64,000 nucleotides of DNA, taken from contig CAZCAO010000001.1 of the NCBI GenBank assembly GCA_964496815.1, positions 17,803-81,802 of the forward strand. Direction: 5' to 3'. A program made the translations under genes and the position numbers. The notes under the pieces are model-generated. The model did no database searches. It was not told where the DNA came from and was given only the letters and a program-made list of their open reading frames with translations. Numbering within the stretch: position 1 is the first letter of the stretch; every line of letters starts with the position of its first letter. This document shows positions 6,478 through 62,268 of the stretch, one piece after another. Origin of the DNA: an uncultured Candidatus Saccharibacteria bacterium. Its GTDB lineage: Bacteria; Patescibacteriota; Saccharimonadia; CAILAD01; JADZBC01.

Positions 6478-7710
6478 ATGGCGGCAAAAAACGAATCAAC
6501 ATTTGTAGGTTTAGACATCGGCACAAGCAAAGTAGCTTGTGTGGTTGGCTTGCATCAGGATGATATGGCTGAGCCGAGTATCATAGGCCTTGGCGTGGCG
6601 CCTACGACGGGTTTGCGCCGCGGAACGGTCTCGGACGTAGAGGAGACTGTTGCGTCGATTACGGCTGCCCTTGAAGAGGCCGAGCGGATGAGCGGCGTGA
6701 CGATTGAGCACGCTACGATCAGTGTCGATGGTGCGCATATCCAAAGTCTCAACTCACGCGGTGTCATAGCTGTCAGTCGCGCTGATCACGAGATATCACG
6801 TGAGGATCTCGCTCGCGTTGAGGAAGCGGCGGCTGCTATTCAGATGGATAGTAATCGTCAGATCCTTCAGGTAATACCTCGTAGTTATACCGTAGATGGT
6901 CAGACAAACGTCACCGACCCCGTTGGCATGAACGGTGTTCGTCTTGAAATTGATACACATATAATCACCGCTGCTTCACCAGCCATGAAGAACCTGACTA
7001 ACGCAGTTTTTCGCGCTGGGATTACGATTGACGATCAGCTTTTGGTGCCGCTGGCCGCTGCACGAGCTGTTCTAACAAAACGACAGTTCGAGCTCGGCGT
7101 CGTCCTCCTTGATATCGGTGCCGAAACGACTGGTATTGTGGTTTTCGAAGAGGGTAGCATTGCTTTTACAACTATTCTACCTGTAGGGTCAAACCATATA
7201 ACTAAGGATCTGGTATATGGCTTGCGCACAAATATTGATGTAGCCGAGAAGCTCAAGCTAGCGCGGGCTTCTGCTATGAAGGAGAAGGGCCGACCGAACG
7301 AAAAAATCGACCTAGCTGACTTTGGCGGTAGTGGTACAGTCAGCCAGAGCGAGGTTGATAAGATTGTAACCTCACGCTGCGAAGAGATCTTCACCATGGT
7401 TGCCACAGAGCTACGTAAGGCAGGTAAGGACTCAATGTTGGCCGGCGGAGCAGTTTTGACTGGCGGCGGTGCTAAATTGCCTGGAATTGATAAGCTGGCC
7501 CAAAACACCCTCAAACTTAATGCTGTAGTGGCATCGCCACGCGGCTTCGGTGGGATTAGCGACAGGGTAAAAGACCCAGCTTATGCAGCTGCGGTCGGTC
7601 TTATGCTCGAGGATATGCATCATACACCAACTGGCCATGGCGGGATAAACTCTGCTATCAGCGGAATTGTTTCACAGGTAAAGGGGATTTTTAAGAACTT
7701 CTTGCCATAG
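6478..7710 (+). CDS. ftsA: Cell division protein FtsA
   Basis: Actin-like ATPase 'VGLDIGTSKVACVVG', 410 aa, directly upstream of ftsZ. Confidence 0.9.
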   Translation: MAAKNESTFVGLDIGTSKVACVVGLHQDDMAEPSIIGLGVAPTTGLRRGTVSDVEETVASITAALEEAERMSGVTIEHATISVDGAHIQSLNSRGVIAVSRADHEISREDLARVEEAAAAIQMDSNRQILQVIPRSYTVDGQTNVTDPVGMNGVRLEIDTHIITAASPAMKNLTNAVFRAGITIDDQLLVPLAAARAVLTKRQFELGVVLLDIGAETTGIVVFEEGSIAFTTILPVGSNHITKDLVYGLRTNIDVAEKLKLARASAMKEKGRPNEKIDLADFGGSGTVSQSEVDKIVTSRCEEIFTMVATELRKAGKDSMLAGGAVLTGGGAKLPGIDKLAQNTLKLNAVVASPRGFGGISDRVKDPAYAAAVGLMLEDMHHTPTGHGGINSAISGIVSQVKGIFKNFLP

Positions 7711-7773: not shown

Positions 7774-7845
7774 GAACACGACATAAATATTATTGAACAC
7801 AAAATTTAACAGATGTAAAAGGTCCAAATATTTCGAGCAAAATAT

Positions 7846-7874
7846 TTGCATTACTTGTGCAATTTGGTTATACT
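7846..7874 (+). promoter_or_regulatory. sigma70-like promoter for ftsZ
   Basis: TTGCAT-17 bp-TATACT. Confidence 0.5.
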
Positions 7875-47734: not shown

Positions 47735-49198
47735 ATGAAAGCGCTAACCCTCATTGCTCAGGCAGAGCATCACTATGCCCCAGAACAGATCGCGCGCCTT
47801 AAGGCCGCTGTGGAGCTTGCAACGCGCGCCCATGCTGGCCAAAAGCGTAAGAGTGGGGAGCCTTATATTACCCACCCGTTGCACGTAGCGTCATTATTGA
47901 TCGATTGGAAGCTTGATATTGATTCGGTTATTGCCGGTGTGTTACACGATACGGTAGAAGACACGACCACAACTATGGAAGATGTGCGAGCGCAGTTTGG
48001 TGACGATGTGGCATTTTTGGTTGATGGTGTTACTAAGGTTGGCAAAGTACGCAGTGGCATGCGTAGCATGGATGAGTATCGACCCGAAACTAGGGAGAAT
48101 CTTAGTAAGCTGCTGATCGCAGTAGGGCAGGACCTGCGCGTCATTATCATTAAACTAGCCGATCGGCTACATAACCTACAGACATTGCGCTATTTGAGCG
48201 AGGAAAAGCAACATAAGATAGCCCGCGAATCTCTCGATGTCTTCGCACCACTAGCAGACAGAATGGGTATGGGGCGGCTGCGCGTACAGATCGAAGAATT
48301 AGCTTTTTCTTACTTGGAGCCCGAGGCTTATAAGGAGCTTCAGTCCACTATCAAAAAACGTGTGCGGCAGGCTCACAAAAATCTCGAGAACGTGCGTTTG
48401 AAAGTTGAGCAGACGTTTCGTTCGGCTGGTTTGCAGGCACGGCTCGAGGGGCGAATCAAAAGCGTGTATTCTTTGCACAAAAAGCTCAAAAAGGTCGGTG
48501 GTGACTTCGATGATATTTACGATCTCATAGCACTCAGGGTGCTCGTAGAGGATGTCGAGGATTGCTACCGAGCACTTGGTCTACTGCATAGTCTCTATCA
48601 ACCCCTGCCGACGCGGATTAAGGACTATATATCGGTGCCTAAGCCCAATGGCTACCAGTCGCTTCACACGACGGTTTTGACACCTGAGGGCCAGGTGGTG
48701 GAGTTTCAGATTCGTACCGAGGAGATGCACACACATGCTGAGCGCGGTTTAGCAGCGAGCTTTCACTATAACGAGCAGAAGCTTGCTAAGAACTACGTGC
48801 GAGGTGAAGCTTCGCGTCTGCCACGCAACATGCAATGGGTTGTGACCTTGCAGGATGCTATTGCTTCACTCGATGGCGACAGCTCGGCATACGAGCGACT
48901 TAAAGTTGATTTATTCGCAGATCGAATCTTTACTTACTCACCCAAAGGTGATATCTATGACCTGCCCGAAGGAGCAACGGCACTCGATTTTGCTTTTGCT
49001 GTACACTCCGATATTGGTTTGCAAGCGCATACTATTAGGGTGAATCATAAAATCGCCTCGTTCGACAAAGAACTCAACAATGGCGATATTGTAGAAGTGG
49101 TTACTCAGAAGCGGGCACACCCGAGTATGGAATGGGTGAACTTTTTACGAACCGATAAGGCGCGCAGCAAGGTGCGGGCCTACCTACACAGTCGGTGA
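47735..49198 (+). CDS. Short RelA/SpoT homologue (HD hydrolase + synthetase + TGS; no C-terminal ACT region)
   Basis: HD 'HPLHVA..HD', synthetase 'YQSLHTTV', TGS 'DRIFTYSPKGDIYDLPEGATALDFAFAVHSDIG'; TATAAT 6 bp before ATG. Confidence 0.85.
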   Translation: MKALTLIAQAEHHYAPEQIARLKAAVELATRAHAGQKRKSGEPYITHPLHVASLLIDWKLDIDSVIAGVLHDTVEDTTTTMEDVRAQFGDDVAFLVDGVTKVGKVRSGMRSMDEYRPETRENLSKLLIAVGQDLRVIIIKLADRLHNLQTLRYLSEEKQHKIARESLDVFAPLADRMGMGRLRVQIEELAFSYLEPEAYKELQSTIKKRVRQAHKNLENVRLKVEQTFRSAGLQARLEGRIKSVYSLHKKLKKVGGDFDDIYDLIALRVLVEDVEDCYRALGLLHSLYQPLPTRIKDYISVPKPNGYQSLHTTVLTPEGQVVEFQIRTEEMHTHAERGLAASFHYNEQKLAKNYVRGEASRLPRNMQWVVTLQDAIASLDGDSSAYERLKVDLFADRIFTYSPKGDIYDLPEGATALDFAFAVHSDIGLQAHTIRVNHKIASFDKELNNGDIVEVVTQKRAHPSMEWVNFLRTDKARSKVRAYLHSR

Positions 49199-50183: not shown

Positions 50184-50768
50184 TTAGAGCAAACCAAGCT
50201 TACGGGCACAGGCGGGCCATGGACTCCAGCCGCGGGCGGCTTGGGTTTCGCGCGCTTTAGCGTCCTGAACTTCAGGAGGTGCTAAGTGCGGATAGGCGTA
50301 ACCACCATAGTTGGCCCAGGTACCGAGGTTGTACTGGTAGGCGCCATAGTAACCGTTGCCCGAGTTGCGGGTATAGTCACCACCGGCTTCACAAAGGCGC
50401 AATTGCTCCCAGACGTCACCAGTCGCAACACCGATTTTTCGGTTCGATTGGTCGTCGATCTGTGCACTAGCCAGTGTAATCTGTACTGCCTGAGCAGCTG
50501 CAACCTTGGCTTCAGCTTCGGCTTGAGCCTTGGCGGCTTGAGCAGCCTTGATCGGAGCCATGACTTCTTGGTCGAAGTCGGGCTTCTGGGCTACAAGCTC
50601 TACAGCCTGAGGCGAATTTGTATTGATGTTTAGATTGTATGTTACTTTTGGTCTACTTACAGCTTGGGCGGCAGCCTCGGCTGTAGCGGTGGCGGGAATG
50701 TGTAGGGGGTTGGCCACCTGGGTTGCAAATAGTACTGCTACTATGAGCGATTGGATGTGTTTATACAT
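50184..50768 (-). CDS. Secreted resuscitation-promoting-factor (Rpf)-like transglycosylase
   Basis: Signal peptide; 'WEQLRLCEAGGDYTRNSGNGYYGAYQYNLGTW...RGWSPWPACARKLGL' aligns with Rpf domain '[27 protein letters not shown]...QGWGAWPLCSQKLGL'. Confidence 0.8.
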   Translation of the reverse strand: MYKHIQSLIVAVLFATQVANPLHIPATATAEAAAQAVSRPKVTYNLNINTNSPQAVELVAQKPDFDQEVMAPIKAAQAAKAQAEAEAKVAAAQAVQITLASAQIDDQSNRKIGVATGDVWEQLRLCEAGGDYTRNSGNGYYGAYQYNLGTWANYGGYAYPHLAPPEVQDAKARETQAARGWSPWPACARKLGLL

Positions 50769-51479: not shown

Positions 51480-53264
51480 ATGAGAGACATCATTAAGATT
51501 ATTCGTTACTCCTGGAAGCTCTGGCGTTATTACCTATCAATTGCTTTTTTGGTCATCGTAGTAGCCTTGCTTGGTCTGGCTTCGCCGTTCTTGGTCAAGA
51601 TGATTGTAGACGGCTTGGTGGCAAACAGCTCCGGCGGTAATTATCAGGTAGGCTACTTTATAGTTATCGTTGCCCTTATCTTATTGAGCGACGTAGCGGG
51701 GACGATCATTTCGAACATCAATGGCCACCTGGGGGACATGATGTCTGTTAAACTCAACACATTGCTGAGCCAGCGCTATTACGATCACCTCATGTCATTG
51801 CCAATTGAATACTATGACAATGAAATCACCGGCAAAATCACGGCACGCTTAGAGCGTACGATTGGCACGATTAGCACGCTCATGCAGACCATGGCCAACA
51901 ACTTTGCCCAATTCTTCCTGACAACACTTATCACACTAGTATTTATTAGTATTTACTCCTGGCCAGTTGCGCTGCTGCTCATCGTGATTTTTCCTACCTA
52001 TATTTACATTACGCAGCTGTCGAGTCGGCGTTGGCAGCACGCACAGGAGGGCATCAATCAAGACCTAGATGTGGCGAACGGGCGTTTTGTTGAATCAGTT
52101 GGACAGATTAGGGTTGTCAAATCATTTGTAACTGAGGCTATGGAATCAGCATTCTTCCGTGGTAAGCGACGCAGCATTGAAGACCAGACCAAAGGCCAAT
52201 CTATAGTTTGGCATAAATACGACGTAGCCCGTAGGCTAGTGCTCAACGTCGTTTTTGCTTTGATCTACTGTTTTATTACTTGGCAGGCGTTCAAAGGGGA
52301 AATTACGCTTGGCGAATTCACCTTGCTATTGCAGCTTGTAACACAGGCTCAAATGCCGCTATTTGGCTCGTCATTCATTGTAGACGCTCTGCAGCGCGCT
52401 AAGGCGGGAAGTAAGGATTATTTTGGCGTTATGGCTCTTGAGCCAAGCATTAGTGATCAGGCTGATGCTAAGCCACTGAAGGTTAGCCGCGGTAAGGTAA
52501 GTTACCAGGCAATTTCGTTTGGCTATAGCCAGGGTAAGCAAGTTCTGAATGACATTAGCTTTGATATAGAGCCAGGACAAAAGATCGCGTTGGTGGGCGA
52601 GAGTGGTGAGGGTAAGAGTACGATTGCTAACATCATGCTACGCTTTTACGAGCTTGATGGTGGACGGATTCTGATCGACGACAAGGATATTAGCCAGGTT
52701 ACCCAGACGAGTCTGCGCAAGAACATTGGCGTGGTTTTCCAGGAGCCTGCCTTGTTTTCTGGCACCATCGCCGAAAACATAACATATGGTAGCGGCAAGG
52801 TGTCACGACAAAAGTTAGAGGCTGCGGCGAAGGCCGCTAACGCCCTCGGCTTTATTAAAAAACTCGAACATGGCTTTGATACTCAAATAGGCGAGCGTGG
52901 TGTGAAGCTGTCGGGTGGTCAAAAGCAGCGTATTGCCATCGCTCGGGCAATCCTCAAGGATGCCCCAATTCTTATTCTTGATGAGGCTACGAGCTCGCTG
53001 GATAGTAAGGCTGAGCGGGAAGTGCAAACAGCACTTGAGCGGCTCATGCAGGGGCGCACCACAATGATTATTGCTCACCGTTTGAGCACGATTGCTAACG
53101 TCGATGCAGTAGTCGGCATCCGTGGTGGCAAGATTGTAGAGATGGGCTCACCTGCCCAGCTGGCAAAAGGCAATGGTATTTATGCAGAGCTCCTAAGGCT
53201 ACAATCTGGCGCGGCAACCAAAGCTACCAAGGCTAAGCTTAAACAATTCGAGATCGTTAAGTAG
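51480..53264 (+). CDS. ABC exporter, fused permease/ATPase (MsbA-like)
   Basis: 6 TM + Walker A 'GESGEGKST', 'LSGGQKQR', 'ILILDEATSSLD'. Confidence 0.9.
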   Translation: MRDIIKIIRYSWKLWRYYLSIAFLVIVVALLGLASPFLVKMIVDGLVANSSGGNYQVGYFIVIVALILLSDVAGTIISNINGHLGDMMSVKLNTLLSQRYYDHLMSLPIEYYDNEITGKITARLERTIGTISTLMQTMANNFAQFFLTTLITLVFISIYSWPVALLLIVIFPTYIYITQLSSRRWQHAQEGINQDLDVANGRFVESVGQIRVVKSFVTEAMESAFFRGKRRSIEDQTKGQSIVWHKYDVARRLVLNVVFALIYCFITWQAFKGEITLGEFTLLLQLVTQAQMPLFGSSFIVDALQRAKAGSKDYFGVMALEPSISDQADAKPLKVSRGKVSYQAISFGYSQGKQVLNDISFDIEPGQKIALVGESGEGKSTIANIMLRFYELDGGRILIDDKDISQVTQTSLRKNIGVVFQEPALFSGTIAENITYGSGKVSRQKLEAAAKAANALGFIKKLEHGFDTQIGERGVKLSGGQKQRIAIARAILKDAPILILDEATSSLDSKAEREVQTALERLMQGRTTMIIAHRLSTIANVDAVVGIRGGKIVEMGSPAQLAKGNGIYAELLRLQSGAATKATKAKLKQFEIVK

Positions 53265-53326
53265 CCTTTAGATTTGCGAGATATTTTTGCCCTTTTGGGC
53301 TATCTGAGTATAGTCATTTATGAAAC

Positions 53327-53355
53327 GGGCTCCGAGAGGAGCCTTTGTTATTATT
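53327..53355 (+). terminator. Intrinsic terminator after ABC exporter
   Basis: GGGCTCC-gaga-GGAGCC followed by TTTGTTATTATT. Confidence 0.6.
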
Positions 53356-53504
53356 GAGAATTGGCTGTATTATATTCGTGTCCGCAACTGTGCCCGGAGG
53401 TACAAAATGAACATTCCTGCTTGGGGCATCGTGGCTCCACCCCAGAGCGACTTGAGAAATATCTCGGGTCGCTTCTCCATTCTATAAAAATCCCCTAAAT
53501 ACTA

Positions 53505-53533
53505 TTGACAAGCGTAAGCGACTATGCTATTAT
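53505..53533 (+). promoter_or_regulatory. Near-consensus sigma70 promoter
   Basis: TTGACA-17 bp-TATTAT. Confidence 0.6.
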
Positions 53534-53539
53534 ACATTC

Positions 53540-53953
53540 AACGTCATCGGCAGTGCGCACAGCGCGCGTCGTTGGCCACCCTCACGGAGAGGGGACGTGA
53601 CCCGGTATGCGGGCTTGGTCTTCGGACACACGTTTCAGCTGAGTCCTCGGACACGAGGTATGATCTAGGGCTGCTCGAAGCCCGCGGTCAAAAGCTCACT
53701 CCAAGTGACCCACGAGTCACTTGGTAGTCGGGAACATGTTCCTGACTAGTTTTGCGATCGGGTCGAGATGCGTGGCTTTGTCCACCACCCGAAAACAATC
53801 GAGAGGATGCAGTTCTGTGATCGCACACAGAATCCTTTCTTAGACGGGCTCTTCATCGAGTCGGCTCCCTTCGGGGTAGTTATCTCGATGAATCCCGTCA
53901 ATCCTATTTGAATTATCTACAAGAGGACTCCTTTCGGAGTCCTCTTGTTATTT
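53540..53953 (+). ncRNA. Unclassified ~415-nt GC-rich structured transcript with own promoter and terminator
   Basis: ~65% GC in a ~50% GC genome; many stems (CCAAGTGA/TCACTTGG, GGGCT/AGCCC, GGAACATGTTCC, GCGATC...GATCGC); ends with AAGAGGACTCC-tttc-GGAGTCCTCTT + GTTATTT; no credible ORF. Confidence 0.45.
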
Positions 53954-54186
53954 ACCTAGCTAATTACTACGGCAGTAGCCTAAACCATCTTGCTCATAAA
54001 AAACCTGTCCATTAGGGGTATGCCCCTAAGCGGCTTGAAATCTCCCAGCCCGTTTTGGTTATGCCTGAATCCATATTGCTGCTGGGGCGTATTCTCAGGT
54101 ATAATAATCAGCATAAGCTTTTATATTTTGTTCAATAAAGTGAGGGTGATATCACTAAGAAATTAGTACAAAAGGCGGCCACTACT

Positions 54187-57100
54187 ATGCGACGCGCAGC
54201 AGAGCGTGGTCGTACTGTATTTGTTCGTACTAAAATCCCGCATCACGCTAAACGTGCTCGCGTAGTGGTAGCTGCGCATGCCAGGCGCGCCCATAGTGCG
54301 ACGTTGGGCAGGGCCCATTCGCACTTGGTCACTAGAGTGCCGATGTATAGCAAGTGGCATGGCTGGAAGCACCATAAACATGTTCATCACGGTGTTTTGG
54401 CGGCCGTCTTGGTGGCTGGAACTCTAAATATTTTATTATTCCGCTCGGCTTTTGCCCTTTCGGATATTACTCAGTTGTGGAACTTTTCTAGCCAGTCTGA
54501 CTACACGCTGTCAGATACCAATGCACTGGAATATAGCGGCAATAGTGTGCGCCTAAAAGCCCAGAATTATACGAGTGACGCTAATACCATGGCCCTGTAC
54601 CATCTGGATGAATCAAATGGCACTTCGGCAAGTGACGATTCAAGTAATAACAATACAGGCTTGCTAGCTAATGCGCCGGCGTGGGGAGCTGGGAATCTCA
54701 ACAATGCCCTTACCCTAAACGGCACGAACCAAAGTGTTAGTGCAGCCGATTCAAGCTCGCTTTCGCTTTCGCAGAGCAATAGTTTAGAGGCTTGGTCAAA
54801 GTTAGGTTCTAGCTTTTCGGCCAATTCTCAGCAGAACGACCAAGTGATTATGGATAAGGGTAGTTATAAACTCTATTATGATCACGAGACTGGTAAGCCA
54901 ACCTATGAGCTAGAGAACTCGTCGGCTACAAGCTGGACTCCGCAGGCGGGTAACGGCCAGAATAACAGTTGGAATACCTCTGGCCCGACCGCTACAAAAG
55001 CATCAGTCGTTCACGATAACAATCTATACATTGGCACAGCAGGCGGCGCAGGTTACGCTCAAGTTTGGGGCTATACAGGTTCAGCTTGGACTAAAATTGG
55101 CGGTGATGGCATAAACTCAGGCTGGGCAGCAAACACGTATGAGGAGGTCGACTCCCTTACTTCAGATGGAACATATCTATATGCTGGCCTCGGTACAACT
55201 ACAGGTGATGGTGAGGTGTGGCGTTGGAATGGTTCTAGCTGGAGCAAAATTGGAGGTGATGGCATAAACTCAGGCTGGGCAGCAGCTACCTATGAGTCTG
55301 TGGCTAGCATGACATATATGGGGGGTAATCTCTACGCCGGGCTAGGTGCAAGTGGAGGTGACGGCGAGGTATGGAAATGGAACGGAACGAGCTGGACTAA
55401 GATTGGCGGCGACTCAATTAACTCTGGTTTTAATATCGGAACTGTCGTAAGCCTTGCGAATGATGGAACGTACGTTTATGCCGGCACAGGTACTGCTGCA
55501 GGAGATGCCGATGTCTGGAGATGGGACGGCGCAATTTGGACCCAGCTCGGCGGCGATGGACTAAACTCAAGTTGGGCGGCGGGCACCTATCAGCAGGTGT
55601 TAAGTATGTTTGTACAGGGCGGACAGTTGTATGTTGGTACGGGTGCCGGCACGAGCTTGGGTGAAGTTTGGAAGTGGAGTGGTAGTGCTTGGGCCAGGCT
55701 GGCTAGTAGCGGAACGGGATTCCCGGCAGCCACGTATGAGGGTGTATGGAGTATCACGGGCGACGGAACTAATCTTTATGTTGGCACTGGCAATAGTCAG
55801 AATGACGGTGATGTATATAAATACAACGGTTCTACATGGTCGCAAATCGGTGGTGACGCCCTAAGCTCTGGTTGGACGCAGGGATACATCGTCTATTCAC
55901 TTACTTGGTTCAACGGAAAACTTTATGCCGATGCGACTCAAGCTTCCAGTGGCGATGTCTTTTACTCTTGGAATGGTTCTGCTTGGACGCGTGAAGGTGG
56001 TATGTACTATGGTGGTAGTTGGGGAATGATTAATCTCAATAGTGTGCGGTCTATGACAACTGCCAACGGCAAGTTATATGCTGGCCTTGCAGGGAATTCC
56101 AACGCCAGCGTGTTTGAATACACAGGATCAGCTTGGCGGATTATTGGTGCGCCTGGGCTTAATTCCGCCTGGGGCGTGAGCCAAATTAGCGAGGTTAATG
56201 CCATGACATCAATGGGGGGACAGCTATATATCGGCACAAGTGGCGGGCAGAATGGTGATGCGGAATTGTGGCGTTGGAATGGCACGAGTTGGGCTCAGGT
56301 AGGCGGCGATGGCATAAATTCAAGCTGGAATGGTTCTTATACACGTATTTATGCAATGGCATCAGATGGTACCAATCTTTATGCCGGGGTCGGTTCCACC
56401 GGAGGCAATGGTGAAGTGTGGCGCTATTCGGGCTCAACCTGGACGCGGATAGGCGGCGCAGGGGCCAACGGTAGCTGGAATGGAACTTACCGAAATATAT
56501 ACTCTTTAGTCGTTTCGGAGGGAAATCTTTATGTAGGTAGCTATGGATCAACCAATAATAGTGCCGATGTGTGGAAGTGGAATGGGTCAAGCTGGACTCA
56601 AATTGGTGGCGATGGATTGAATTCCGGTTGGAATTTCAGCTCTATAGGTAATGGTGAGGTTGGTTCGCTCGCAGTTTATGGTAATAAGTTGTATGCAGGG
56701 ATAGGCTCTCTAAGCGCTGGAGATGCCTCGGTTTGGTCTTGGGATGGAGCTGCCTGGACCAAGGTGGGGGGCGATGACGTTAATGGCAGTTGGACGACCA
56801 GCACCTATGAACGTGTCGCTAGTATGGTTGTATATAACGGCCAGCTTTATGCCGGCCTGGGTTCAACAGGCAGTAATGGCGAACTCTGGCGTTATAATGG
56901 TTCAACCTGGACGCAAGTCGGCGGCGACAGTCTCAATGGCGGCTGGAGTTCGTCGATTGAAAGCGTGCGCTCTCTAGCGGTCTATAAAGGTAAGCTTTTT
57001 GCGGGTCTTGGTGACACTCAGAATTCGGATGCCCTGATTTATTCGTATGGTAATAATGGCTTCCTGCAGGGTTCTACAAGCAGTTTCGACACTGCTTGGC

Positions 57101-60100
57101 GGCATATCGCGGCGACATACGACGGTAGCACGATGAAGCTGTATATTAATGGCGCACTTGATGCTTCGGGCGCAACTTCTTTATCGATGCCCGACACAAA
57201 TACCAGCCTCTATATTGGGCGATCGTATGGCACGCAGGGTTCGAGTGGGAATCAAGCATACTATAACGGCAGTTTAGATGAGATTCGTATTAGCAATAGC
57301 GTTCGAACGAGTTTTACATCGAAACCCTATACTGCCAGTCGGGTGGGTGTTCGACTCACTAATCCAGTTTATACGAGCGGCATTGCCAGTTGGGATGGTT
57401 TGGCGAGTAGTTATAGCGCCGATGGTGGCAGTGTGCTGTTTAGACTTTCTATAGACGGCGGAACAACCTGGCGATATTGGGATGGCTTTGCTTGGCAAAC
57501 GTCAGCGGGGCTAGAACAGGCAAACGCAATTGCCGATATTAACGCCAATATACCCTCGATTGGAGTTACATCGGGAGGGATTGTGTGGCAAGCTGTGTTA
57601 CAGGGCGATGGCAATCAGCGTCCATCGATAAGCTCGACTACCCTAACTGCCACAGCGGACACAACTGCCCCTGGTCAAAACGCGGCTAATACCATTATGA
57701 AGACGTCTCCTACCGGAGCGACGGTTGCCGAAGGGGCCTGGACCAATGCGGCCACACCGTACTTTAGTTGGGATGCCGCAATCGACACCCAGTCGACAAT
57801 TAAGGCATATTGCCTCTACCTGGGCCAGTCAAACAGTGATGACCCTCTGACGTCGAAAGGTCTGCTCGGTACGAGTCCGATTGACCTGACAAATACTTGC
57901 CCATTTGCCGTTTCAGGGCAGGACCTTGATCTTGCCACGAATGGGTTGTTGGCGAGTGTGCTGACAAGTTCTTCGAACCCATATTATCTAAACATTAAGG
58001 CAATTGATAACGCTGGCAATGTTGCGGCTAATAGTGAGCAATTTTCATTCCGCTATGATGGAATCGTCCCATCAAACCCCCTCTTCGTTTCCACTCCGTC
58101 GCAATTTGTGGCCAACAAGCAGGTGACGATTACCTGGCCGACCGTCGGGGGAGATGCGGCGCTTGATCAGCATTCCGGGGTTGTAGGCTTGCAATATCGC
58201 ATTGGTACCAATGGTACTTGGTATGGCGACAGTCATACCGGTGCGCAAGACAGTACTGATCTGCTGGCAAACGACGGTAGTTATCAGACGATTGATCCAA
58301 CTGACTTTGATACCTTGCAGGATGGTAATAATACCGTTTACTTTAGGACCTGGGATGCGGCGGGCAATGTGTCGAATGCATATGTTACTGGCGTGATTAA
58401 GATAAATACATCATCACCTTCTGTTCCCCAGAATTTATCAGCTACACCGACGACAAATACGACGAATAGCTTTGCCTTTGATTGGCTCGCGCCGGCTAGT
58501 TTTGGCGGTTCAGCGGCTAACTTAACGTACTGTTATACAATAAATACTCTGCCTTCAGCTAACACGTGTAGCTTCACGGCTGCCGGCGTAACGAATTTGA
58601 TTGCCAACGCTTATGCCACGCAGCCAGGAGCCAACACGATGTATGTGGTAGCTAAGGATGAGGCGGGTAATATAAATTATGCCACTTATGCCTCGGTTAC
58701 CTTTACGGCCAACACGTCAGCGCCTGGACTGCCGCTCAATGCAGATATCGCCGACATCAGCGTCAAGGCTACATCAAATTGGAAGTTGGCAGTATCTTGG
58801 GAAGAGCCAACTGACGTCGGAGCAGGTGTTGCTCAATATCGAGTCTATCGATCTGTCGACGATATTACCTATACGCAGATAGCGAGTACCTCGGGTGCTA
58901 GCTATGTTGACACCGGCCTTTCTCCAATACGGTATTACTATAAAGTTAAAGCCTGCGACTCTGCTAATAACTGCGGCGCCACGACGCTGCAGGTTAATCA
59001 AAAGCCAACAGGTAAATTTACTACCCCTGCTAGCTTGGTTTCTGATCCGGTCGTGTCTGACGTGAGTACGCGACGAGCTACCGTGAGCTGGTCGACTGAT
59101 CGTGATAGTGATAGCCGTATTCAATTTGGCAAAAGTTCTGGTAACTACTTTGCTACAGAAGTCGCAAGCTCTGCACAGACCACGAGTCACAACATAACGA
59201 TTAACAATTTAACCTCGGGAACAACCTATTATGCTCGTGCTCGCTGGACCGACGAGGACGGCAACATCGGTACTTCTGAGGAGTTTATGTTTAGTACCAG
59301 TCCAGCACCGACAGTCAAAGAAGTAACCAATAAACAGATTGGACTTGGTAGTGCTACAGTCCAATTTACATCCAAGGAGGCCACCAAGGTCAAGGTGCTT
59401 TATGGTAAATCAGAGAGTTTTGGCGGGGCGCAGGAGATTAATACAGCCACGCAAGAATCTACTTACACGACCGTGCTATCGAACTTAGAGGATGGTACGA
59501 AGTATTACTATAAGCTCAACACCTATGATAGCGAAGATAATGAGTATGAAGGCAATGTCTACTCGCTTACAACTCCTGCCCGACCTCGTATTAGCAACCT
59601 GCGCTTCGAGCCAGTTGAAGGCGAGCCTACAAGTACGCAGCGGGTCTCGTGGACTACCAACGTACCGACAAGCTCCGAGGTAAGCTACGGCGCGCAGGGT
59701 CAGTCATCTCAAGAACAGTTAGACAGTCAATTAACCCTTGATCACAGCATTGTGATTCGCGGCCTGACTGATGATAGCATATATTCCCTGGTTGCACGTT
59801 CTCGAGATAGCCAGGGCAACGCCGCAGTAAGTGAGACGCAGACATTCCGTACCGCACTAGACACCCGTCCGCCGAAGATAAGTAGCGTTGTGGTCAAAAG
59901 TGCGGTGCGTGGTAGCGGGGCCGATGCACGGGGACAAGTTATTGTAAGCTGGCAGACTGATGAGCCGGCAACCAGCCAAGTGGCGTTTAGTCAGGGCTCT
60001 TTGGGCGGGGAGTTGGCTTCAAGGACCGCAGAAGACGCAAAGTTGGTTACCGACCACCTAGTGATCGTATCTGACCTGACCCCGTCGAAGGTCTACCAAG

Positions 60101-60237
60101 TTCAGGCTTTATCGAAGGATCGTAGTAGTAATCCGGCGAAATCACTCGATCAAACAACAATTGTTGGTAAGGCTCCAGCCAGTATTTTTGACATCGTATT
60201 TAAAACGCTACAGAGCATATTTAGCTTTGTAAAATAG
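54187..60237 (+). CDS. Giant cell-surface protein: N-terminal anchor, LamG-like domains, ~18 tandem ~55-aa beta-propeller-type repeats, C-terminal FN3-like domains
   Basis: 2016 aa; repeats 'GDGEVWRWNGSSWSKIGGDGINSGWAA..Y..V.S......LYAG'; LamG-like 'LYHLDESNGTSASDDSSNNNTGLL...'; FN3-like 'ATVSWSTDRDSDSRIQFG'; true start possibly internal (MYSKWHGW...). Confidence 0.85.
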   Translation: MRRAAERGRTVFVRTKIPHHAKRARVVVAAHARRAHSATLGRAHSHLVTRVPMYSKWHGWKHHKHVHHGVLAAVLVAGTLNILLFRSAFALSDITQLWNFSSQSDYTLSDTNALEYSGNSVRLKAQNYTSDANTMALYHLDESNGTSASDDSSNNNTGLLANAPAWGAGNLNNALTLNGTNQSVSAADSSSLSLSQSNSLEAWSKLGSSFSANSQQNDQVIMDKGSYKLYYDHETGKPTYELENSSATSWTPQAGNGQNNSWNTSGPTATKASVVHDNNLYIGTAGGAGYAQVWGYTGSAWTKIGGDGINSGWAANTYEEVDSLTSDGTYLYAGLGTTTGDGEVWRWNGSSWSKIGGDGINSGWAAATYESVASMTYMGGNLYAGLGASGGDGEVWKWNGTSWTKIGGDSINSGFNIGTVVSLANDGTYVYAGTGTAAGDADVWRWDGAIWTQLGGDGLNSSWAAGTYQQVLSMFVQGGQLYVGTGAGTSLGEVWKWSGSAWARLASSGTGFPAATYEGVWSITGDGTNLYVGTGNSQNDGDVYKYNGSTWSQIGGDALSSGWTQGYIVYSLTWFNGKLYADATQASSGDVFYSWNGSAWTREGGMYYGGSWGMINLNSVRSMTTANGKLYAGLAGNSNASVFEYTGSAWRIIGAPGLNSAWGVSQISEVNAMTSMGGQLYIGTSGGQNGDAELWRWNGTSWAQVGGDGINSSWNGSYTRIYAMASDGTNLYAGVGSTGGNGEVWRYSGSTWTRIGGAGANGSWNGTYRNIYSLVVSEGNLYVGSYGSTNNSADVWKWNGSSWTQIGGDGLNSGWNFSSIGNGEVGSLAVYGNKLYAGIGSLSAGDASVWSWDGAAWTKVGGDDVNGSWTTSTYERVASMVVYNGQLYAGLGSTGSNGELWRYNGSTWTQVGGDSLNGGWSSSIESVRSLAVYKGKLFAGLGDTQNSDALIYSYGNNGFLQGSTSSFDTAWRHIAATYDGSTMKLYINGALDASGATSLSMPDTNTSLYIGRSYGTQGSSGNQAYYNGSLDEIRISNSVRTSFTSKPYTASRVGVRLTNPVYTSGIASWDGLASSYSADGGSVLFRLSIDGGTTWRYWDGFAWQTSAGLEQANAIADINANIPSIGVTSGGIVWQAVLQGDGNQRPSISSTTLTATADTTAPGQNAANTIMKTSPTGATVAEGAWTNAATPYFSWDAAIDTQSTIKAYCLYLGQSNSDDPLTSKGLLGTSPIDLTNTCPFAVSGQDLDLATNGLLASVLTSSSNPYYLNIKAIDNAGNVAANSEQFSFRYDGIVPSNPLFVSTPSQFVANKQVTITWPTVGGDAALDQHSGVVGLQYRIGTNGTWYGDSHTGAQDSTDLLANDGSYQTIDPTDFDTLQDGNNTVYFRTWDAAGNVSNAYVTGVIKINTSSPSVPQNLSATPTTNTTNSFAFDWLAPASFGGSAANLTYCYTINTLPSANTCSFTAAGVTNLIANAYATQPGANTMYVVAKDEAGNINYATYASVTFTANTSAPGLPLNADIADISVKATSNWKLAVSWEEPTDVGAGVAQYRVYRSVDDITYTQIASTSGASYVDTGLSPIRYYYKVKACDSANNCGATTLQVNQKPTGKFTTPASLVSDPVVSDVSTRRATVSWSTDRDSDSRIQFGKSSGNYFATEVASSAQTTSHNITINNLTSGTTYYARARWTDEDGNIGTSEEFMFSTSPAPTVKEVTNKQIGLGSATVQFTSKEATKVKVLYGKSESFGGAQEINTATQESTYTTVLSNLEDGTKYYYKLNTYDSEDNEYEGNVYSLTTPARPRISNLRFEPVEGEPTSTQRVSWTTNVPTSSEVSYGAQGQSSQEQLDSQLTLDHSIVIRGLTDDSIYSLVARSRDSQGNAAVSETQTFRTALDTRPPKISSVVVKSAVRGSGADARGQVIVSWQTDEPATSQVAFSQGSLGGELASRTAEDAKLVTDHLVIVSDLTPSKVYQVQALSKDRSSNPAKSLDQTTIVGKAPASIFDIVFKTLQSIFSFVK
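55050..57040 (+). repeat. Tandem intragenic repeats (DNA and protein level)
   Basis: e.g. 'ggtgatggcataaactcaggctgggcagca' occurs near-identically at ~55095 and ~55257. Confidence 0.7.
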
Positions 60238-60247
60238 GGAAAAGATT

Positions 60248-61018
60248 ATGCAATATTTGATTGAATTTAAAAACGTAGAAAAGAGCTTTGAGGTAGAAGA
60301 GCGCCAAGTTCCAGTATTGCATGATATCAATTTGGCCATCAAGCCGAATTCGTTTGTTATTGTGTATGGCCCTTCGGGCAGCGGCAAAAGTACATTGCTT
60401 AACATCATGATGGGCCTAGAGCCTCCTACGAGAGGGTCTGTACGCATCGACGGCCAAGAGATTTATAACGAGTCCGCCCGTTCACGAGCACTCTATAGGT
60501 CAAAAAATCTAGGGGCTATTTATCAGTCAATGTACTGGATAAAAAGCCTTTCGGTAATTCAAAACGTAGCGCTACCACTTATGTTGGCGGGCCAGACTCG
60601 TGCTCAGGCGCAAGCTACTGCAATGCAAAAGCTTAAGCTCGTTGGTATGGACAAGTTTTCACGTTATGCGCCCAGCTTGCTATCGGGTGGTCAGCAGCAA
60701 AGGGTCGCTATGGCAAGGGCTTTGGTTTCTGAGCCATCAATTCTGGTAGCAGATGAGCCAACGGGCAATTTAGATAGTAAGACAGGAGATGAGGCCATGC
60801 GTCTGCTGCATAATTACCACAAATCAAGCGGCTGTACGATTATACTTGTTACGCATAACTTAGAATATCTCTCAATGAGCAAAGAGCGTTATTACATGCA
60901 GGATGGACGTCTAAAGCAAGATAGGGATATGCACACCGAGCATGTCAGCCGACTTGTAAGCCAAATGCGCAACCGTCTTGATCGAAACCAAGCAGGGCCC
61001 GAAAGGAAAATGCAGTAA
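60248..61018 (+). CDS. ABC transporter ATP-binding protein (MacB/FtsE-type)
   Basis: Walker A 'GPSGSGKSTL', 'LSGGQQQR', 'LVADEPTGNLD'. Confidence 0.85.
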   Translation: MQYLIEFKNVEKSFEVEERQVPVLHDINLAIKPNSFVIVYGPSGSGKSTLLNIMMGLEPPTRGSVRIDGQEIYNESARSRALYRSKNLGAIYQSMYWIKSLSVIQNVALPLMLAGQTRAQAQATAMQKLKLVGMDKFSRYAPSLLSGGQQQRVAMARALVSEPSILVADEPTGNLDSKTGDEAMRLLHNYHKSSGCTIILVTHNLEYLSMSKERYYMQDGRLKQDRDMHTEHVSRLVSQMRNRLDRNQAGPERKMQ

Positions 61019-62268
61019 TGCTGAGTAGAGTTAAACGTGTATTGCCAAACAGGAAGGGTGAAAAAGGTCAGCCGCGCCTAAGTTTCTTGCTGTCGATGGC
61101 ATTGAGTAACTTGCGCTTCAAAAAACTCCGTACCTCGCTGACTGTTGCAGGGGTGGTCATTGGTATTGGATCAATCGTATTCTTGGTATCACTTGGCATG
61201 GGTTTACAGAACTTAGTTACCAAACGAGTTGTCAGCTCTGATTCGGTAAGGACAATCGAGGTGACAACACCCGACCCTACGCTGGTTAAGCTCAACGATC
61301 GTGCAGTTGATCAGTTTAGGAACTTTGGTTCGTTTCTAAACGTAACGCAAATCTATTCTTACCCTGGCAATATCAGTGCCGATGCTGCTCTTACGGACAG
61401 TGTCGTGTATGGTATCGATAGTGCTTACACTAAAGTTGTATTACCCCAAAAACTAGCAGGTGATGTCGTGAAAGATCTCGGACCGAATGATGTGGTTATA
61501 GGGAGCTCTTTATTGCAGCCACTTAACATTAGCTCTGCCCAAAAGGCAATAGGTAAGGCAATTAAGATAAGCATAGTCGTGCCGGATGTTCAGGGTCAAA
61601 CTAAAGCAGGCAAGACGGTAATGCAGGAGTTCGTCATCCGTGGAGTAGTGGAGAGTGGTGCTGGGACTGACGTCTATATCAGTCAAAGGATTTTTAAGGA
61701 CCTCAGTTTAGGAGAGTACGAGCAGGTTAAGCTAGTAGTAAAAGAACAGAGCGCTACTCCCGATATTCGCAAGCGTATTGAGGCGCTCGGTTTTGCGACA
61801 GCCTCGCCTATAGACACATTGCAGCAGATCAATCAGCTTTTCACCTTCTTTAACTTCATTCTCGCCGGCTTTGGTAGTATTGGTATGCTAATCGCGGTTC
61901 TAGGCATGCTAAATACCCTAACTATTTCCCTTTTGGAGCGAACGCAAGAAATTGGCTTGATTGTGTCACTTGGTGGAACTGAGACCGACATAAAAAAGCT
62001 ATTTGTATCCGAATCTCTAATCCTGTCAGTTGCAGGCGGCGCTTTAGGGATTTTGATGGCCTATGGCGGCGGCGGAGTTATCGATCTAGCTCTCAACGGT
62101 TTAGCTAAGCGCCAAGGCTTGACTGAGGAATTCAGTTTGTTCTCGTTACCTTTAACTCTGATTGTAGCCGTTGTAGTATTCATGATAGTGGTTGGCTTGG
62201 CAGTCGTTTATATTCCGGCACGTCGTGCTGCGCGCATTAATCCGATTATTGCCCTGAGAAGAGAGTAG
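61018..62268 (+). CDS. ABC transporter permease, FtsX/MacB-like
   Basis: N-terminal TM, extracytoplasmic domain, C-terminal 3-TM FtsX module; ATGA-type overlap. Confidence 0.85.
   Translation: MLSRVKRVLPNRKGEKGQPRLSFLLSMALSNLRFKKLRTSLTVAGVVIGIGSIVFLVSLGMGLQNLVTKRVVSSDSVRTIEVTTPDPTLVKLNDRAVDQFRNFGSFLNVTQIYSYPGNISADAALTDSVVYGIDSAYTKVVLPQKLAGDVVKDLGPNDVVIGSSLLQPLNISSAQKAIGKAIKISIVVPDVQGQTKAGKTVMQEFVIRGVVESGAGTDVYISQRIFKDLSLGEYEQVKLVVKEQSATPDIRKRIEALGFATASPIDTLQQINQLFTFFNFILAGFGSIGMLIAVLGMLNTLTISLLERTQEIGLIVSLGGTETDIKKLFVSESLILSVAGGALGILMAYGGGGVIDLALNGLAKRQGLTEEFSLFSLPLTLIVAVVVFMIVVGLAVVYIPARRAARINPIIALRRE

Follow-up and report, generated by a model that had tools for sequence, protein, structure and literature searches.

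What work do ATP-binding cassette (ABC) genes do beside a gene for a giant, repeat-rich surface protein? The question is raised by a locus in a 64,000-nucleotide (nt) stretch of an uncultured Candidatus Saccharibacteria contig (the window; all positions below are coordinates within it), where a gene for a protein of 2016 amino acids (aa) lies among three ABC genes. How members of the candidate phyla radiation (CPR; Patescibacteria) build their surface and attach to other cells is an open question, for which this module is a concrete candidate; functional work in cultivated strains has so far pointed mainly to type IV pili, along with a small number of further envelope proteins, e.g., those from the transposon sequencing (Tn-seq) screen of Southlakia. 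All four genes of the locus are on the + strand, and the positions and sizes given for them in a first-pass annotation of the window were borne out by the open reading frame (ORF) map and Pfam:

51480-53264, + strand: generic ABC half-transporter gene, 594 aa (Pfam ABC_membrane+ABC_tran)
54187-60237, + strand: giant gene, 2016 aa (ORF map; Pfam Laminin_G_3, fn3 and Pur_ac_phosph_N)
60248-61018, + strand: ABC ATPase gene, 256 aa (Pfam ABC_tran; LolD/FtsE/MacB/DevA group)
61018-62268, + strand: MacB-type permease gene, 416 aa (Pfam MacB_PCD+FtsX)

The reading that we favor, with a probability of roughly 0.6, is that positions 54076-62268 form a three-gene operon conserved across Patescibacteria, encoding a surface fibril and a cognate MacB-type mechanotransmitting ABC that would act on this fibril on the outward side of the membrane. 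The operon-like junctions, the architecture, the deep adjacency of the three genes and the separate ABC pairs of duplicated modules are documented below.

Adjacency of the giant gene and the ABC pair

The giant-gene stop and the ATPase start are separated by 10 nt, as the first-pass annotation had claimed and as read directly from the sequence, and the permease start overlaps the ATPase stop (TAATG). The resulting gene order, partner-ATPase-permease, is that of macA-macB and yknX-yknY-yknZ. By scanning species-representative genomes and comparing the window proteins by tblastn, we obtained 41 loci, of which 38 continue downstream of the giant gene. In every one of these 38, a same-strand ABC ATPase gene was found 4-82 nt past the giant-gene stop, with MacB_PCD/FtsX permease matches after it; among the 38 are Saccharibacteria loci as well as contigs titled Levybacteria, Dojkabacteria and Paceibacterota. 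Two distant members agree, as the gene for a 4,492-aa protein has the ATPase and then the MacB_PCD/FtsX permease downstream, and that for a 3,517-aa protein has one inserted small gene, the ATPase and the contig end; the contig of the 6,321-aa protein P0249 stops directly after the gene and is uninformative on adjacency. When ORFs were clustered across the 41 loci, no other neighbor gene was conserved, including genes for HlyD-type membrane-fusion proteins (MFPs), TolC-like proteins, kinases and response regulators. Duplicated modules keep their own partners: two modules (L003 and L023) share one metagenome-assembled genome, each with its own ABC pair, and a further locus (L019) holds two modules. 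Altogether, the link between the giant gene and the downstream MacB-type pair is strongly supported, and cognate pairing is supported by adjacency in 38 of 38 loci while other neighbors change, by the duplicated modules with their own pairs and by an ATPase-permease fusion in Dojkabacteria described below.

The true unit comprises three genes, not four. Judged by its profile scores, the upstream gene, which had been counted into the unit as MsbA-like, is a generic ABC_membrane+ABC_tran half-transporter below the MsbA equivalog score (TIGR02203, 405 bits against a cut-off of 602; TIGR01846 type_I_sec_HlyB, 330 against 725). Of the 38 loci, only the five closest relatives (identity of 67% or more) have it upstream, and the other 33 lack it; in the window it has its own terminator-like hairpin, and a separate transcription unit intervenes between it and the giant gene.

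The downstream pair was correctly recognized at first pass as a MacB-type ATPase with an FtsX-type permease, according to Pfam, NCBIfam and PDB matches. The ATPase motifs are intact (Walker A GPSGSGKST, signature LSGGQQQRV, Walker B ILVADEPT and the H-loop), and its best NCBIfam matches were LolD, FtsE, DarD, YbbA, DevA and the MacB N-terminal region, none of which reached its equivalog cut-off. The permease matched PF12704 (MacB_PCD) with 62.7 bits and PF02687 (FtsX) with 59.4 bits, both above cut-off; it has transmembrane (TM) segments at 37-68, 274-307, 328-352 and 368-405, with an extracytoplasmic domain of ~205 aa between TM1 and TM2, and its PDB relatives by sequence were YtrF (9o9x), MacB (5gko/5lil), Spr0695 (5xu1) and LolF. 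The pair thus combines the ATPase motifs and the four-TM permease with MacB_PCD and FtsX domains that characterize the MacB, or type VII ABC, superfamily.

A pair of this class might also be an ordinary pump, serving efflux or resistance, with peptides, lipids or small molecules as substrates, and merely be cotranscribed with the giant gene without acting directly on its product. MacB-family pumps often export small molecules or peptides, a MacB-type pair in Southlakia has no giant neighbor, and the contact between the ABC pair and the giant protein is one that we infer. We regard such a pump as unlikely, however, because adjacency holds in 38 of 38 loci over phylum-level distances while all other neighbors change, because duplicated modules keep their own pair and because the gene junctions are tight or overlapping.

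Head, stalk and tail of the giant protein

The giant ORF is real. Searched as a protein, it recurs without any difference on an ENA metagenome scaffold of 44.5 kb and has more than 120 full-length relatives of ~2,000-2,090 aa (48-81% identity, ~100% coverage), the named ones being Candidatus Saccharibacteria or Saccharimonadales; a chimeric assembly, which had been named as a possible refutation, is ruled out by more than 90 full-length orthologs of 2,001-2,090 aa. In a 91-sequence alignment, mean column identity was 64% and even along the length, at 0.63-0.79 per 50-residue block. The first-pass picture of a giant extracytoplasmic protein rich in repeats, its head a propeller and its tail FN3-like, is supported, and the following parts were distinguished, with secondary structure taken from AlphaFold2 (AF2) predictions:

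54187-54462, + strand: N-terminal region, aa 1-92, with a basic His/Trp-rich stretch, a hydrophobic helix (aa 66-90) and A-F-A (aa 88-90)
54463-54981, + strand: predicted N-terminal half of a LamG/concanavalin-A-like jelly roll, aa 93-265 (AF2 strand pattern; sequence like the first half of Laminin_G_3)
54982-57051, + strand: 14 predicted four-stranded blades, aa 266-955 (153-nt period, 13 motif matches, AF2 secondary structure)
57052-57321, + strand: C-terminal LamG half, aa 956-1045 (Pfam Laminin_G_3)
57343-60165, + strand: predicted stalk of nine Ig/FN3-like beta-sandwiches, aa 1053-1993 (AF2, Foldseek, Pfam fn3 and Pur_ac_phosph_N)
60172-60237, + strand: predicted C-terminal amphipathic helix, aa 1996-2016 plus stop, here APASIFDIVFKTLQSIFSFVK; family pattern ..AL.LV..NL...FGF

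A hydropathy scan revealed a single TM-like segment, at aa 66-90; around it, Y54, W57 and A90 are conserved in at least 90% of the aligned sequences and D93 is invariant. The protein is accordingly predicted to carry a long N-terminal Sec-type signal or anchor, in which A-F-A (aa 88-90) is a possible signal-peptidase site. By motif scan and Pfam, it contains no LPXTG motif (LP.[TSA]G), no RTX GGxGxD motif and no S-layer-homology (SLH) or wall-binding domain, and so has the marks of neither a sortase-anchored nor an SLH-type surface protein; Pfam detected no coiled coil or hydrolase domain in it.

Several LamG domains had been proposed alongside the FN3-like domains. The FN3-like matches stand, and so does a single Laminin_G_3 match (58.5 bits; cut-off 27.6), which spans aa 958-1041 and profile positions 68-146, i.e., only the C-terminal half of the domain; this half also matches the LamG-like part of PDB 4qvs by sequence. 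An AF2 model of the head (aa 93-1150), built from the 91-sequence alignment, was compact (predicted local distance difference test [pLDDT] score, 91.7; predicted TM-score [pTM], 0.87), and in it the 14 blades lie between the strands of aa ~93-265 and those of aa ~950-1040. Read from this strand pattern together with the sequence, there would be one LamG domain, split by the insertion of the blades.

The repeat motif W.WNGS.W..IGGDG.NSGW was confirmed, with 13 matches in the giant protein. The DNA repeat period is 153 nt and the motif spacing is 48-54 aa, so that the ~18 repeats of ~55 aa described earlier become 13 clear repeats of ~51 aa plus a split 14th blade. AF2 secondary structure gave 14 four-strand blades and the best PDB matches were 7+7 propellers; on this model, the blades most likely form two seven-bladed beta-propellers inserted into the LamG domain. 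The near-identical DNA repeats that had been reported at 55095 and 55257 are near-identical only over a core of ~37 nt, at 55095 and 55248, and over 75-95 nt the copies are 60-76% identical. The accompanying idea that such repeats drive length variation is contradicted by this divergence and by the propeller region, which measures 689-715 aa in 91 of 91 aligned orthologs with no gap of 20 columns or more; blade number is fixed and variation in repeat number is unsupported. These region lengths come from the alignment, because regular-expression blade counts in homologs were unreliable (8 to 18). NG[ST] sequons numbered 37 in the blades against ~30 expected, not enriched overall and variably kept; N-glycosylation sequons were therefore dropped as a blade feature.

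The best PDB matches of the head were Elp2, AIP1, the glycan sensor BT4663 and GH74 xyloglucanases, at TM-scores of 0.2-0.4, values low enough that the matches would indicate fold class rather than function; phage tail-fiber-like proteins with propeller or LamG modules matched weakly. Tandem propeller glycan binders (GH74 xyloglucanases 1sqj and 6p2l; BT4663, 4a2m) are extracytoplasmic bacterial proteins with two seven-bladed propellers, as is predicted for the giant protein. However, identity to them is only 11-16% and the TM-score 0.22-0.38, eukaryotic double propellers match equally well, and the predicted insertion into a LamG domain has no counterpart in them. The resemblance to glycan sensors such as BT4663, together with the ability of type VII ABCs to couple events across the membrane, could also speak for a sensor, in which the head binds an external ligand and the signal travels via the stalk to the MacB-type complex, much as BceAB-type transporters detect their substrates, or tandem-propeller periplasmic domains in hybrid two-component systems detect glycans. 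We consider a sensor quite improbable: the structural matches are generic, a nine-domain stalk would be a poor conduit for conformational signals, and the 41 loci have no conserved neighbor of the giant gene that could serve as output, such as a kinase or response regulator.

The AF2 model of the stalk (aa 1040-2016; pLDDT, 87.3; pTM, 0.40) has the appearance of beads on a string, and Foldseek matched it to titin/MyBP-C, contactin, gp130 and the base of the GhpA grappling-hook protein. By a rough estimate from nine stalk domains plus head, the fibril would be tens of nanometers long. Three Cys pairs (1209/1238, 1449/1461 and 1590/1596) are invariant in the 91-sequence alignment, which fits an extracytoplasmic location. 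At the extreme C terminus, AF2 placed a helix at aa 1998-2011 with low pLDDT; its hydrophobic moment of 1.5-1.7 and mean hydropathy of 1.1-1.4 suggest that it is amphipathic rather than transmembrane. The helix is present in 39 of 39 loci listed and in every phylum sampled, with SVLTIILNTLKKVFGF, ALNLVIDNLAKTFGFL and PLDIIISRLSEVFGFI as examples.

By sequence comparison, the C-terminal half and the tail helix are what the family shares, as outside Saccharibacteria only aa ~1100-2016 are alignable, at 35-46% identity. The Levybacteria locus examined has a Kelch propeller head and a 727-aa permease; in Dojkabacteria, two tandem DUF2341-headed proteins of ~1,400 aa precede a fused ATPase-permease of 795 aa; and a second Saccharibacteria module type has a DUF2341 head and its own ABC pair. 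Heads are thus swapped between lineages (LamG/propeller, Kelch, DUF2341) and stalk and helix are kept, in support of our reading. When the last 260 aa were searched with HMMER against 1.84 billion cluster representatives, 1,239 representatives of 50%-identity clusters were recovered at E<=1e-30; in another search, a profile of the same residues recovered, where names were given, CPR groups only (Roizman-, Woese-, Berkel- and Saccharibacteria, WWE3 and Patescibacteria). Among the 150 matches listed, which range from 253 to 6,321 aa, the matching part is in many cases the extreme C terminus of the protein itself. The giant protein has all three features by which we define this stalk-and-helix family, namely an FN3-like run, the pattern ..AL.LV..NL...FGF at its end and a MacB-type ABC next to it.

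Among close relatives, the nonsynonymous divergence (dN) of the head was 3-4 times that of the stalk; synonymous divergence (dS) was saturated in nearly all comparisons, so that dN differences alone are usable. At greater distances, across Saccharibacteria, the giant protein is ~50% identical, against 40-46% for the ATPase and permease. The unit stands out in these respects, being kept across several CPR classes, with 1,239 cluster representatives and a giant protein more conserved than its ABC partners.

Such conservation bears on whether the fibril faces a host at all, since the giant protein might serve as a building element in the wall or surface layer of the cell itself, with the ABC pair needed for assembly. 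For a surface protein, conservation is unusually even and high, both within the alignment (column identity, 0.63-0.79) and across Saccharibacteria (~50%); it exceeds that of the ABC partners (40-46% identical), blade number is fixed, and the oral epibiont Southlakia appears to be without the giant protein, all of which would suit an envelope component. On the other hand, Pfam detected no S-layer-homology or wall-binding domain, and the heads, which are swapped between lineages and in close relatives change more rapidly than the stalk, behave as would an outward-facing binding module. We hold this self-envelope role to be doubtful yet possible; it overlaps the cognate-ABC reading, the ligand being the sole difference.

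Some further members deserve mention. Two tandem paralogous DUF2341-headed proteins of ~1,400-1,550 aa precede a single ABC system in the Dojkabacteria locus L027 (1526-12327) and in L023 (6168-17410). Five loci titled 'uncultured Gammaproteobacteria' or 'Weeksellaceae' (L029, L033, L035, L036 and L037; GC content, 36-44%) carry the module; because their syntenic neighbor genes are common with Levybacteria-titled loci, these record titles are probably taxonomic mislabels. Small 23S_rRNA_IVP/bAvd-like genes for four-helix bundles, at L046 12674-12994 and at L047 1165-1548 and 3570-4037, adjoin distant giant members, one of them lying between the giant gene and its ABC ATPase. The bAvd proteins accompany diversity-generating retroelements, and from these neighbors some family members might be diversification targets.

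Proposed action of the ABC pair on the fibril

Type VII ABCs such as MacB, LolCDE and FtsEX do not move a substrate across the cytoplasmic membrane, their ATP-driven motion being passed to an outer domain (PMC5985334, PMC7668044). Because the giant protein is equipped with a Sec-type signal or anchor at its N terminus and because this ABC class acts on substrates or partners located outside the membrane, export of the protein by the MacB-type pair, as the first-pass annotation had it, is unlikely. In its full form, that proposal was a dedicated locus for adhesin production and export, whose flanking ABC exporters secrete the giant protein in a type I-like (LapA-like) manner for host attachment. 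A giant repeat-rich surface protein does adjoin ABC genes, and the upstream gene is of the HlyB/MsbA class (TIGR01846, 330 bits, below the 725 cut-off). Yet that gene is missing from 33 of 38 loci and belongs to a separate transcription unit, the conserved ABC is of the MacB rather than the HlyB type, the giant protein has a predicted N-terminal signal or anchor and lacks GGxGxD RTX repeats, and no membrane-fusion or outer-membrane component is conserved nearby in the 41 loci; we therefore judge such an export locus very unlikely. The case carries a caution for annotation, in that an ABC transporter beside a giant protein need not be its exporter, and the ABC class here points outside the membrane.

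In the mechanism that we propose, the giant protein would leave the cell by its own Sec-type signal and not via the ABC pair, and its compact LamG/double-propeller head would face away from the cell, where the ligand that it binds would probably be a glycan. The type VII (mechanotransmission) pair would then act on the protein on the outward side of the membrane, most likely through contact between the extracytoplasmic domain of the permease and the conserved C-terminal stalk and helix; stalk and helix would be the likely contact or anchor, and the variable head the distal, ligand-binding end. ATP hydrolysis might anchor and hold the fibril, or release it and assemble it into the envelope.

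Parallels to this arrangement exist in several known systems. MacAB-type systems (Spr0693-0694-0695, PDB 5xu1; B. subtilis YknXYZ and YtrEF) likewise have a LolD/MacB-like ATPase, a four-helix MacB_PCD permease and the order of an N-terminally anchored extracytoplasmic partner, ATPase and permease, with ATPase and permease fused in some lineages here as in E. coli MacB. They differ in that the partner here is a 2,000-aa LamG/propeller/FN3 fibril with a C-terminal helix and not an HlyD-type membrane-fusion protein, and in that no small-molecule substrate is implied; no MFP or TolC-like gene of a MacAB-TolC system is conserved in the 41 loci, and the flanking ORFs of the window have no HlyD/TolC domain in Pfam. 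FtsEX, with EnvC, PcsB, CwlO or RipC, is a nontransporting type VII ABC in which ATP hydrolysis acts on a partner bound to the outer domain of the permease (PMC7668044, PMC6355983, PMC10694151). The pair described here would resemble it in acting on a cognate extracytoplasmic protein; unlike FtsX, its permease scores far below the family models (FtsX_Gneg, 27.4 against 255; FtsX_Gpos, 23.8 against 225) and carries MacB_PCD, and neither a coiled coil nor a hydrolase domain was detected in the giant protein.

The LapA/LapBCE type I adhesins also place a giant repetitive surface protein beside a dedicated ABC and have a conserved terminal element for handling or retention, whereas here the ABC is MacB-type, the N-terminal signal Sec-type, and neither RTX repeats nor an MFP or outer-membrane component is found. 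LolCDE, a MacB-family complex, extracts a membrane-tethered protein from the outer leaflet, and the alignment of the permease described here to the lolCE model runs through nearly the whole model (positions 15-411 of 411); however, its TIGR02212 score is 60.9 bits against a cut-off of 362.45, the giant protein has no lipobox, and there is no LolA-like acceptor or outer membrane.

Several points weigh against the cognate-ABC reading. Contact between the ABC pair and the giant protein is something we infer, and adjacency alone cannot tell anchoring, release and signaling apart. The C-terminal helix is of low model confidence and its polar face is not basic. The N-terminal signal might stay uncleaved, which would anchor the protein by its N terminus and place the head beside the membrane; a conserved Trp/His motif, cytoplasmic and located before the hydrophobic helix in Saccharibacteria, fits such a retained anchor. 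Finally, Southlakia ML1 has a MacB-type pair, matched by domain class, without a giant neighbor, and such pairs can therefore work alone.

In the genome of Southlakia epibionticum ML1, the only genetically studied epibiont checked, neither PF13385 nor PF16656 is listed for any protein. Neither SEML1_0053/0054 nor SEML1_0385-0387, the MacB_PCD pairs of this genome, lies next to a giant gene, so that the Tn-seq fitness data are inapplicable to the module; SEML1_0890, the essential 'FN3' gene, is only 588 nt and unrelated. A role of the giant protein in host attachment is possible; on that idea weigh a conservation unusually high for a host-specific adhesin and the apparent lack of the protein in Southlakia. 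More tentatively still, the module might be a CPR-wide surface machine, in which the MacB-type mechanotransmitter loads, tensions, releases or retracts the fibril and exchangeable heads set its grip; were this long shot true, CPR bacteria would have three kinds of ATP-driven attachment devices, this one being added to type IV pili and secretion systems.

Absconditicoccaceae and Patescibacterium have been reported to encode secreted or membrane proteins of very large size that contain FN3, concanavalin and DUF2341 domains, with a proposed part in adhesion; in the accessible portions of those reports, neither the C-terminal stalk-and-helix module nor the MacB-type pairing is described (PMC13059738, PMC11809585). 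No published description of the stalk-and-helix family and its fixed MacB-type pairing was found in the full-text literature, a provisional result, as subscription journals fall mostly outside it. The module joins two known kinds, a giant surface protein and a type VII ABC with an outer partner, in a combination that provisionally appears undescribed, and its significance rests on genomic context and structure prediction only.

Promoter, leader and upstream region

The operon begins with a promoter-like site and two leader blocks:

54076-54105, + strand: promoter-like site TTGCTG-18-TATAAT (TTGCTG at 54076-54081, TATAAT at 54100-54105; read directly)
54112-54124, + strand: leader block CATAAGCTTTTAT, invariant in a six-sequence alignment
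54140-54152, + strand: leader block GTGAGGGTGATAT, invariant in the same alignment

The promoter is present as first annotated, and its -35 TTG and whole TATAAT are invariant in six relatives (to 67% protein identity); a consensus promoter scan left it unlisted, as its -35 matches at 4 of 6 positions. The palindrome GTGATATCAC that had been noted in the leader is present at 54146-54155 and overlaps the second invariant block GTGAGGGTGATAT. It is perfect in the window only, relatives carrying GTGATATCGC, GTGATATAGA or GTGATATCGG. The same block contains GAGGGTGAT, 37 nt before the ATG, which resembles an extended Shine-Dalgarno sequence. Two close relatives (L014 and L032) seem to start at a different codon, GTG, further downstream.

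The leader itself is shorter than the intergenic distance would suggest, ~75-80 nt, as the 922-nt gap before the giant gene holds a terminator-like hairpin and, after it, a separate promoter-to-terminator noncoding unit:

53327-53344, + strand: terminator-like hairpin right after the MsbA-like stop
53505-53533, + strand: near-consensus promoter TTGACA-17-TATTAT, 11/12 matches (promoter scan)
53540-53953, + strand: candidate structured noncoding RNA, ~410 nt, GC-rich (folding, z = -7.2 versus shuffles)
53921-53953, + strand: strong 13-bp hairpin followed by a T-run, at the end of the RNA unit

Across the whole window (1-64000), Rfam gave no family at its gathering thresholds and ARAGORN called neither a tRNA nor a tmRNA. 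The RNA unit itself likewise gave nothing in Rfam at gathering thresholds, and at E<=1 the only hits in the intergenic region were two weak ones on the minus strand, ascribed to chance. When further copies were sought with a conserved 18-mer in viral contigs and a conserved 20-mer in metagenome contigs, all matches were fortuitous and lay in high-GC coding regions unrelated to the unit. The unit is shared with L003 only, where 16 of 97 predicted pairs show compensatory changes, and it is absent in the other close relatives. Just ahead of it, at 53437-53476 in the window, lies a hairpin-containing sequence of 36-40 nt (CCACCCCAGAGCGACTTGAGAAATATCTCGGGTCGC). In L003 this sequence forms a direct repeat (6925-6960 and 7831-7866) that brackets an insertion of ~900 nt, comprising the RNA unit plus a small ORF, and in L004, which is without the insertion, it is single copy (7830-7869). 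Because the repeat flanks the insertion in one locus and is single where the insertion is absent, the sequences suggest that the RNA unit arrived at its site as an inserted element.

Further upstream, at 47735-49198 and 50184-50768, lie a gene for a RelA/SpoT-type (p)ppGpp synthetase-hydrolase and a minus-strand gene for a 194-aa protein, the latter with a resuscitation-promoting-factor-type transglycosylase domain. Both genes are syntenic in the closest relatives only.

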